A stretch of DNA of 56,819 bases, counting the filler, from Novakomyces olei (Eukaryota), in NCBI GenBank assembly GCA_016906335.1. It is 2 parts of 2 records of this genome, joined end to end, with 100 filler letters (N's around TTAATTAATTAA, not from the genome) between each part and the next. Parts side by side here need not be neighbours in the genome. Positions count along the whole stretch, not along the records: positions 29,794 to 56,819 come from JADEYG010000010.1; 1 more part is not named here. One strand, 5' to 3'. A program made the translations under genes and the position numbers. This document shows, piece after piece, positions 37,019-38,571 of the stretch (position 1 is the stretch's first letter; the number at the start of each line of letters is the position of its first letter). The notes beneath the pieces were generated by a model that saw only the letters and a list, made by a program, of their open reading frames with translations, was not told the DNA's origin and ran no database searches.

Positions 37019-38571
37019 CTATGTAAGACAGCTGGTAAAATCGAGAAAAACATCTCCGGGCAAGCTCTTCTTAAAGCTTTGTGTTCATTCACCAAGTGGT
37101 GCTACAGCGTCTCTATTTTCAACAGCTCTGCGAAGAAGGTAAGCCCAGACTTCAGTCATCGTTCCCATTGCGAGCACTTGTAAACCTCTGGAGTGCCGCG
37201 TTGTCCTCATTTGTAGTAGAGAGAAACTGACTTCGTCGACATTCCATGAGCTGTCCAAATGAACTGGACGTTGGTAAATTGTGCTGATTCGATGCTTGTG
37301 AAGATCGTGAGCTTCATTACACTTTTCTTGTTGTGGCTTGCCAAAAAAAGGTTAACCAATGGGAAGGCTTATCAATACAATTGGTTCAAACTGTTGTTTA
37401 GTAAGACTGAGAGATGTAGTTGTAAGCATCGTCAGTATTCTTTGTATCGTGGATCAGACACCTCTCGTCGGTATTCATATAGGCGCCTTGACTAACTTCA
37501 GACCGAGTGTAAATCCTTCTTTTTCAGCCTCACCATATGCTGAGGATGTCGACGGAGTATTTTCAAGTAGCCTGATTATGTATATAGATAATCGATAGCG
37601 TCCCTGTTATATTTGGCATGAGAACCATGCCGGCTTTGATATTCCCCATTGGAAACGCTGAGATTCAGCATCAATGAGGATGCGAATACCGCGAGATTTG
37701 CATTTTGTAGCAATTTCATCCATAGATCAACTGCTTGTTGTGACGGAAGTTCGTCCGTGCTAAAGCCGCCGCAACATTAGGCCCGGCTCAGTCATTCTAA
37801 AAATTAGTTTAAAAGAATTTCTAAAAAGTCTTGAACCTGTTTGGTTTCAAGCTTTAGCGCCTTCTTTCACTTACTTAGAGCCAGATAGTCCCTTCTCCAG
37901 AAACTCCACAGTCAATAAAGTCCGACCCGCCAGGATTCTATGTTTGCACACTAGCAAAGCTGGGTCTACAGACAGTCCCTTTTTCTTTTTTTCCAACACC
38001 GCCATTCCTAAGCTTGCCTGTTCTGTTTTATGATCGAAGTTATCTCCTTCGCATAAGTCATAATCATGCCACGAAACCCCATATTTTTTTATTGCCAAAC
38101 GGTAGATTTAGACTTGATAGCATTTCTCCAGAACAAAACTGATTGTAAAACGTTTTTTCAGAAGATTTTTAACAAAGGGTTTGCGATCGACATTAAAATA
38201 ACTGATCTCCTGGCTGAGATTTTTGTTAAGGCAGCAAGCGCTGAGTAAGAAGATATGGTTTTGATGAGACGTTGAAACGAGCATGACCTTAAAAGGAAGG
38301 ATCGGTATCGCGCAGACAGAGGTGTAACGCAGATGTCTCAGCAGGCTTATCGAGCTGCTCAGCCCGTACCCCGGCACTTGAAGAGGAGGACTGGATTCCC
38401 CTGACAAACAGATCGATCAAGTAATTTGAAGAATTTCGAACCGGATTTAAAAGATCAGTCTAGAATTGACACAGCAAACTTGCCATTTCGATTTACTCTG
38501 TCAAGTTTAGTTTTCGAATCTAGTATTGGAGGTTCAAGGAAGGAGCTTTGATTTAAGGTGGTAGACTCCAT
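37019..38571 (-). CDS. Proline dehydrogenase family flavoenzyme (Put1/PrnD/PRODH), probable hydroxyproline dehydrogenase; many 1-bp indels
   Basis: LKKTFYNQFCSGE, GIRILIDAESQRFQ, GFTLGLKLVRGAYM, FGQLHGM.DEVSFS, VYKCSQWG, YLLRRAVENRDA. Start codon approximate. Confidence 0.9.

Follow-up and report, generated by a model that had tools for sequence, protein, structure and literature searches.

A candidate hydroxyproline dehydrogenase in a Novakomyces olei gene cluster with shared promoter sites

Described pathways and the N. olei cluster

Vertebrates catabolize hydroxyproline with members of the proline dehydrogenase (PRODH), pyrroline-5-carboxylate dehydrogenase (P5CDH), aspartate aminotransferase and aldolase families, namely PRODH2 (HYPDH), ALDH4A1, GOT2 and HOGA1, according to passages of PMC8779045. 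All four families also lie together within ~9 kb of Novakomyces olei DNA, in the second part of the 56,819-nucleotide stretch analyzed here (the window; assembly GCA_016906335.1). At the heart of this cluster is a PRODH-family gene (window 37019–38486, minus strand, intron 37796–37873) that encodes Cys at the position of Tyr540 in Escherichia coli PutA. With modest confidence, we favor the reading that this fungal enzyme is a hydroxyproline dehydrogenase serving a pathway of vertebrate type: a PRODH-family member that fails the Tyr test for proline specificity and probably works like HYPDH. The genomic context is stronger evidence for this reading than residue 540. Unlike the vertebrate genes, the fungal ones form a cluster that includes its own P5CDH, aminotransferase, pyrroline-5-carboxylate reductase (P5CR), flavin adenine dinucleotide (FAD) amine oxidase and Zn2Cys6 transcription factor.

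Two other described systems offer points of comparison. The PRODH domain of E. coli PutA (PDB 1tiw; Y540S variant, 3e2q) has the same fold as the fungal enzyme, and the PutA motifs containing Lys329, Asp370, Tyr437, Leu513, Tyr552, Arg555, Arg556 and Glu559 align to it. The fungal enzyme differs in being monofunctional and eukaryotic, with a natural Cys at 540 and, in a Glu-anchored alignment, Thr at the Asp285 position. The Aspergillus prn cluster (prnA, prnX, prnD, prnB, prnC) likewise joins a PRODH and a P5CDH to a Zn2Cys6 regulator, and its PrnD-type PRODH shares the large paralogue group of the N. olei enzyme (support 0.995). PrnD-type proteins have Leu at the site, however, and the prn cluster, which includes the OCD-like prnX, lacks an aldolase, an aminotransferase and a P5CR. 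PrnA binds CCGG-N-CCGG and CCGG-N6/7-CCGG, as passages of PMC5983819 describe, whereas the sites at the N. olei cluster are of the CGG-N8-CCG type. Neither prnX, nor a PrnD-type Leu, nor PrnA-type sites are found in the N. olei cluster.

On contig C9 (G000:C9:1623768-1641715) the genes run from the Zn2Cys6 regulator through FAD amine oxidase, P5CDH, P5CR, PRODH and aspartate aminotransferase to the DHDPS-family aldolase, with an OPT transporter and subtelomeric repeats beyond. In the window, the P5CDH (P5C/glutamate-semialdehyde dehydrogenase) lies at approximately 33025–34839 (minus strand; one exon matches TIGR01236 at E 5e-134) and is the genome's second copy. The P5CR sits directly downstream of the PRODH gene at 35664–36584 (minus strand; TIGR00112 above cut-off, PF14748; coordinates mapped from C9), and the aspartate aminotransferase-like gene, of the PRK09257 family, lies at 39290–40786 (minus strand; PF00155). 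The HOGA-like class I aldolase of the DHDPS family follows at 41187–42135 (plus strand; human HOGA1, PDB 3s5n, E 7e-30). The FAD amine oxidase, at 31200–32624 (plus strand; PF01266), belongs to the fructosyl-amine/sarcosine/pipecolate oxidase family, with PDB 3djd as its best structural match (E 7e-49). Only the 5′, Zn2Cys6-bearing part of the regulator is in the window (29794–29925, minus strand); the remainder lies outside it at C9:1623768-1625000 (PF04082). Elsewhere the genome encodes a Tyr-type PRODH (contig C3), a P5CDH (contig C7), a P5CR, three further aminotransferases and two further intact DHDPS-family genes. With separate copies of all of these, the cluster is best seen as an added route.

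Aldolases of the HOGA-like class cleave 4-hydroxy-2-oxo acids, so the presence of one here calls for a 4-hydroxylated precursor. The closest solved relative of the cluster aldolase is PDB 3qfe (E 3.5e-140), a DHDPS-family protein labeled 'putative' in its entry, which we take to come from Coccidioides. Aligned to 3s5n, the cluster aldolase keeps HOGA1 Asn78, Tyr168, Lys196 and Gly222 and lacks the DHDPS Arg138; it has Thr, likewise a hydroxyl residue, at HOGA1 Ser198 and a G-T-N-A-E loop where HOGA has G-X-X-G-E. In the passages of PMC3188589 that define these residues, S198T retains kcat with a 7-fold higher Km.

In the pathway we propose, the PRODH would be a mitochondrial flavoprotein in which Cys replaces a Tyr that crowds C4 of the substrate ring, allowing trans-4-hydroxy-L-proline to bind. 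Its conversion of hydroxyproline to 3-hydroxy-pyrroline-5-carboxylate would open a dedicated route whose genes are regulated together. The cluster P5CDH would then yield 4-hydroxyglutamate, the aminotransferase 4-hydroxy-2-oxoglutarate, and the aldolase pyruvate and glyoxylate. The P5CR may clear excess reactive imine or shuttle redox, the Zn2Cys6 factor would induce the gene set through CGG-N8-CCG, and ordinary proline would be left to the separate Tyr-type enzyme. The aspartate aminotransferase and the aldolase show no obvious mitochondrial leader.

The Cys codon and its register

We examined the codon, the intact gene and the alignment on which the Tyr540 comparison depends. On the minus strand, window 37176–37174 reads TGC (Cys429) within EVYKCSQW, with YLLRRAVEN downstream, just as the earlier note had reported. 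In the window copy these two motifs fall in different frames, a point on which the note is silent, and the coding sequence contains 74 indel columns. The C9 gene (G000:C9:1632905-1634432) is intact, encodes 481 aa with one intron and carries the identical codon; window 37160–37194 equals C9 at 35 of 35 positions, TGC included. The note had also called for a check of the codon in reads. A sequencing run from a different study (run X2) contains 0.95 of sampled C9 words. Compared with window 37072–37532, its contig has 4 differing letters and 23 gaps, exactly as many of each as C9 has. Run X2 therefore appears to share the Cys codon, as judged from difference counts and not from individual alignment rows.

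What is the source of the window's frameshifts? Window 29794–51718 aligns to G000:C9:1625452-1648080 at 94.9%, and the alignment has 938 gap openings against 134 mismatches. Over window 29794–48000, 602 bases are missing relative to C9, 113 are extra and 99 are mismatched, and 33 of these 99 mismatches are transitions, the level given by random error. The second window part thus appears to be a duplicate of the C9 end with the error pattern of unpolished long reads, not of decay, and all its frameshifts are suspect. The 74 indel columns might otherwise have suggested an erroneous Cys call or a decayed pseudogene cluster. We regard this as very improbable, given the intact C9 copy with the same codon, the agreement of run X2 with C9, the Cys of the homologues, and differences that consist mainly of one-base losses and show no bias toward transitions. 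Sequencing error as the source of the Cys is ruled out by the C9 codon, run X2 and the homologues, and the codon is confirmed as genuine. The boundary of the two window parts, 29694–29793, is an N-padded linker, and 29794–56819 is apparently contig C10.

The register holds as well. A profile of 20 fungal proteins runs without gaps over the last strand and helix onto E. coli PutA CRIYAPVG...YLVRRLLENG; the aligned segment ends at chain residue 476, and with an offset of 85 taken from the 4o8a row the Cys falls on PutA Tyr540, as the earlier note had placed it. The organism's own Tyr paralogue on C3 agrees, since its VYKYMPYG aligns without gaps to VYKCSQWG with Tyr in the Cys column. A single-sequence alignment to Geobacter PutA puts a two-residue gap at the Cys site. 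Family membership is clear: PF01619 matches at E 6.5e-48 (165.9 bits against a cut-off of 27), and the substrate-carboxylate Lys, DAE, GAY, QLxGM and YLxRRxxEN motifs are all present.

A predicted model (pLDDT 84.9) adopts the PRODH barrel fold, with PutA/PRODH structures as its best matches. In model numbering, the Cys is residue 217, just past the last barrel strand (214–216; the end of beta-8). Foldseek aligns the model to PDB 3e2q at E 3e-6, an entry titled as PutA Y540S with hydroxyproline bound. In the ESM Atlas only generic DHDPS and Pro_dh clusters were matched. Thr stands four residues before the conserved Glu in 117/117 clade members with the motif; this is the PutA Asp285 position if the alignment is anchored on that Glu, where the HMMER alignment is one residue off.

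Human PRODH2 has Ser at the 540 site, and the N. olei enzyme has Cys, so both carry a small residue there. The Tyr of canonical proline-specific PRODHs is absent from the cluster enzyme and present in the organism's second paralogue. That Tyr540 restricts hydroxyproline is stated in passages of PMC3718742, citing Ostrander 2009.

Among near homologues the small residue is universal. Cys occupied the site in 110/110 matches of a first search, and in 213 of the 217 near homologues from two protein searches (the second contributing its best 120 of 971), with Ser in the other 4. The named proteins among the 217 come from Penicillium, Aspergillus, Colletotrichum, Fusarium, Alternaria, Aureobasidium and further filamentous ascomycetes. 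The Ser proteins are P0120, P0128, P0146 and P0197, two of them named Penicillium odoratum and P. lividum. A FastTree tree built on the C-terminal part and read by eye places the N. olei gene inside a KC[ST]xWG clade (support 0.999), itself within the larger group noted above (0.995), which is mostly Cys with Tyr, Leu, Ala and Asn tips. A Tyr-type PRODH in that mostly Cys group, P0253, has a gene model that includes a fused Rieske oxygenase, an arrangement that would suit a proline-betaine route. Nesting in a Pezizomycotina clade argues against orthology to PRODH2, in a tree that holds no PRODH2 sequence, and any hydroxyproline preference would be convergent with PRODH2. The Tyr-to-Cys route inferred in the earlier note is not an event special to N. 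olei; Cys is the normal state of a widespread Pezizomycotina paralogue clade and of many further fungal paralogues.

Promoter sites, neighbors and competing substrates

Across five intergenic regions of the cluster, CGG-N8-CCG occurs 6 times against 0.27 expected, and 0/1000 shuffles reach 6 sites at any spacing from 0 to 15. The sites precede the FAD oxidase, the P5CDH, the PRODH and the aminotransferase/aldolase pair. Two (30927 and 31032) lie in the regulator/FAD oxidase interval (30927–31045), one upstream of the P5CDH (35137–35150), two upstream of the PRODH (38807–38881; damaged by read errors in the window and intact on C9 at 1634770 and 1634833), and one in the divergent aminotransferase/aldolase promoter (41039–41052). 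The P5CR has no N8 site upstream on C9. These shared sites (window 30927–41052) define a regulon to which the FAD amine oxidase also belongs, and the neighboring Zn2Cys6 factor may be the protein that binds them. At an unrelated Cys-clade locus, L011, three such sites fall within 486 bp upstream (mean 0.035, 0/5000 shuffles), while loci L012 and L032 have one each, which could arise by chance. A refined motif, CGGMWRNNNTMCCG, was defined post hoc and is not enriched genome-wide (136 versus 119 in the control); only the unbiased spacing test was used.

The promoter sites bear on a different substrate. The vertebrate route leaves the P5CR and the FAD oxidase unexplained, which makes room for a substituted hydroxyproline or a redox cycle. 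In the first case the cluster would handle some other substituted imino acid, for example N-methyl- or N-glycated hydroxyproline, hydroxypipecolate, another hydroxyproline isomer or a thiazolidine carboxylate, which the FAD oxidase would release or oxidize before an enlarged PRODH pocket takes the product. The two of six promoter sites in front of the FAD oxidase and its membership of a fructosyl-amine/sarcosine/pipecolate oxidase family fit this idea, as do the non-induction of the presumed A. fumigatus orthologue by free hydroxyproline and the many small-residue paralogues (Cys, Ala, Asn, Gly) that fungi retain. However, an intermediate resembling 4-hydroxyglutamate is still implied by the combination of P5CDH, aminotransferase and an aldolase for 4-hydroxy-2-oxo acids, and for an N-substituted hydroxyproline the PRODH step would remain hydroxyproline oxidation. 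Nor was an FAD oxidase neighbor found in the fused gene models or metagenome loci examined. We consider such a substrate unlikely, at roughly one chance in a handful.

Gene neighborhoods in other fungi bear on the hydroxyproline reading and on a further alternative. P5CR is the most frequent neighbor of the clade PRODH: it adjoins it at metagenome locus L012, in fused gene models from Colletotrichum, Byssothecium, Annulohypoxylon and Aureobasidium, and at Afu3g02310. Aminotransferase–PRODH adjacency, which favors the hydroxyproline reading, appears in 4 Fusarium fused models among 22 long matches. Regulators fused to Cys-type PRODH models in Aureobasidium are 41% identical to the cluster factor, and in Colletotrichum karsti a P5CDH lies beside a sister-clade Cys enzyme. 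In A. fumigatus (Afu3g02300) and A. nidulans (AN11221; 'proline oxidase Put1, putative'), a second proline oxidase sits directly beside a P5CR; these genes probably belong to the clade because A. udagawae P0141 does. No aldolase or aminotransferase is among the listed neighbors of Afu3g02300.

Such pairing with P5CR would suit a second, relaxed proline oxidase running a proline/pyrroline-5-carboxylate redox cycle, in which Cys is an inherited trait of no effect on preference. In keeping with it, PrnD orthologues tolerate Leu, and the tree shows exchanges among Tyr, Cys and Leu. But a redox cycle leaves the co-regulated aminotransferase and aldolase unexplained, a full proline pathway of the Tyr type is already present in the genome, and the residue is small in 217/217 near homologues. 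We judge this option improbable, a little more so than the substituted imino acid.

Several lines weigh against hydroxyproline as the substrate, beginning with the residue itself. Among 128 scored distant representatives (the best 150 of 4625 at 50% identity, 22 having no readable motif), Tyr occurs in 70, Cys in 44, Ala in 7, Leu in 4, Asn in 2 and Gly in 1, and the 44 Cys proteins span several paralogue groups. Five Cys-type loci of other subclades (L014, L015, L017, L036, L051), with at least 10 kb of flank on at least one side, have no aminotransferase, aldolase, P5CDH or P5CR neighbor. Two metagenome loci, L034 and L041 (~9950–10850), share the order of the A. fumigatus prn region (6-phosphogluconate dehydrogenase, HPPD-like, P5CDH, PRODH, OCD-like, regulator), and their PrnD-type proline oxidase has Leu at 540; the established mold proline oxidase lineage thus lacks Tyr too. 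With Cys so widespread, Leu in PrnD and Cys loci lacking pathway genes, Cys at 540 is permissive for hydroxyproline and not diagnostic of it. The earlier note had held that proline-specific enzymes have Tyr, which fails in molds, and that the residue supports the cluster hypothesis independently of gene content, which the five bare loci contradict. Its proposed hydroxyproline preference survives to the extent that hydroxyproline is the most likely substrate, but this cannot be read from a residue common among fungal paralogues.

The same caution extends to the enzymes. The E. coli Y540S and Y540A variants reportedly lose specificity and gain only ~3-fold on hydroxyproline. Bacterial DHDPS (E 6e-34) matches the cluster aldolase at least as well as HOGA1 does (E 7e-30). 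Neither the P5CR nor the FAD oxidase is needed for the vertebrate route. The papers found report no assay of Afu3g02300 or AN11221, and hydroxyproline dehydrogenase activity of the KC[ST]xWG clade is a prediction. PRODH–aldolase linkage was seen in this genome only and in 0/80 metagenome loci (the best 80 of 577), of which just 4 were clade loci, each 1.2–3.8 kb long.

Expression in A. fumigatus adds to this side of the balance. According to PMC2526178, A. fumigatus grows on hydroxyproline as nitrogen source. Relative to yeast extract–peptone–dextrose medium (YPD), hydroxyproline raised Afu3g02300 by only log2 0.41 and prnD by 0.21, against 1.99 for a proline-racemase-like gene and 2.34 for one aspartate transaminase; the table of hydroxyproline-induced clusters matched 0/4 terms (PMC2526178). 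In mouse lung, by the same source, Afu3g02300 was up by log2 5.8 and prnD down by 1.37. The orthology of Afu3g02300 is presumed from its P5CR neighbor and gene order, not from sequence. YPD may itself contain hydroxyproline, from peptone. With orthology by gene order and a possibly hydroxyproline-containing reference, the weak induction weakens the hydroxyproline dehydrogenase reading without refuting it.

Origin of the cluster, the wider window and significance

The cluster genes resemble those of filamentous ascomycetes. The host uL4 protein scores highest against fission-yeast entries (438 bits), followed by Kluyveromyces (392), Saccharomyces/Candida (~370), Neurospora (352) and Chaetomium (343), most of these organism labels being our presumption from entry codes. 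Host RPB2 is also best against fission-yeast entries, in a match set that has no filamentous ascomycete entry and does not separate the lineages. On the tree, the host's Tyr-type PRODH is not placed within the groups of filamentous ascomycetes, whereas the Cys PRODH is 60–70% identical to mold proteins and nested among them, which makes horizontal transfer of the cluster from a filamentous ascomycete likely, judged from the tree of one gene without close host relatives. Its exact position within the clade is weakly supported (0.47). Composition gives no sign of transfer, as third-position GC overlaps between cluster (0.33–0.46) and native genes (0.40–0.63).

Other features of the window lie apart from these genes. 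An OPT oligopeptide transporter (43630–45619, plus strand; PF03169) adjoins the aldolase; it has no N8 site upstream, and its membership of the cluster is uncertain. Window 82–8560 encodes an alpha-glucosidase-like gene (911–2803), an MFS transporter and two fungal transcription factors, as seen in translations only. Window 19537–25630 holds an HNH-like frame and a fungal protein kinase (PF17667) spread over several frames, adjoined by subtelomeric TATA-rich repeats at 26000–29600. At ~50900–54600 (C9:1646878-1650980), a RecQ-like helicase frame, 1063 aa on C9 and assigned to its family by eye, lies between subtelomeric repeats.

No published account of a fungal hydroxyproline dehydrogenase, of the clade's function or of this cluster was found in the literature searched, which did not cover subscription sources. 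Hydroxyproline is abundant in collagen and plant wall proteins, and its fungal route had no gene assignment in that literature; the cluster supplies candidates for every step together with a regulator site. The PRODH would offer a naturally occurring small-residue enzyme on which to test the Tyr540 filter model, and would serve as a soluble substitute for HYPDH, which passages of PMC7912158 present as a drug target in primary hyperoxaluria. As position 540 varies freely among fungal paralogues, substrate annotation from it alone is misleading. We offer a broader proposal more tentatively, as somewhat less than an even bet: the KC[ST]xWG clade may be an unrecognized hydroxyproline dehydrogenase that arose independently of PRODH2, and a whole four-step CGG-N8-CCG regulon may have been gained horizontally from a filamentous ascomycete into the subtelomere of a fission-yeast relative. 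If so, molds would use the animal route to break down hydroxyproline from collagen or from the glycoproteins of plant walls, with glyoxylate and pyruvate as products.
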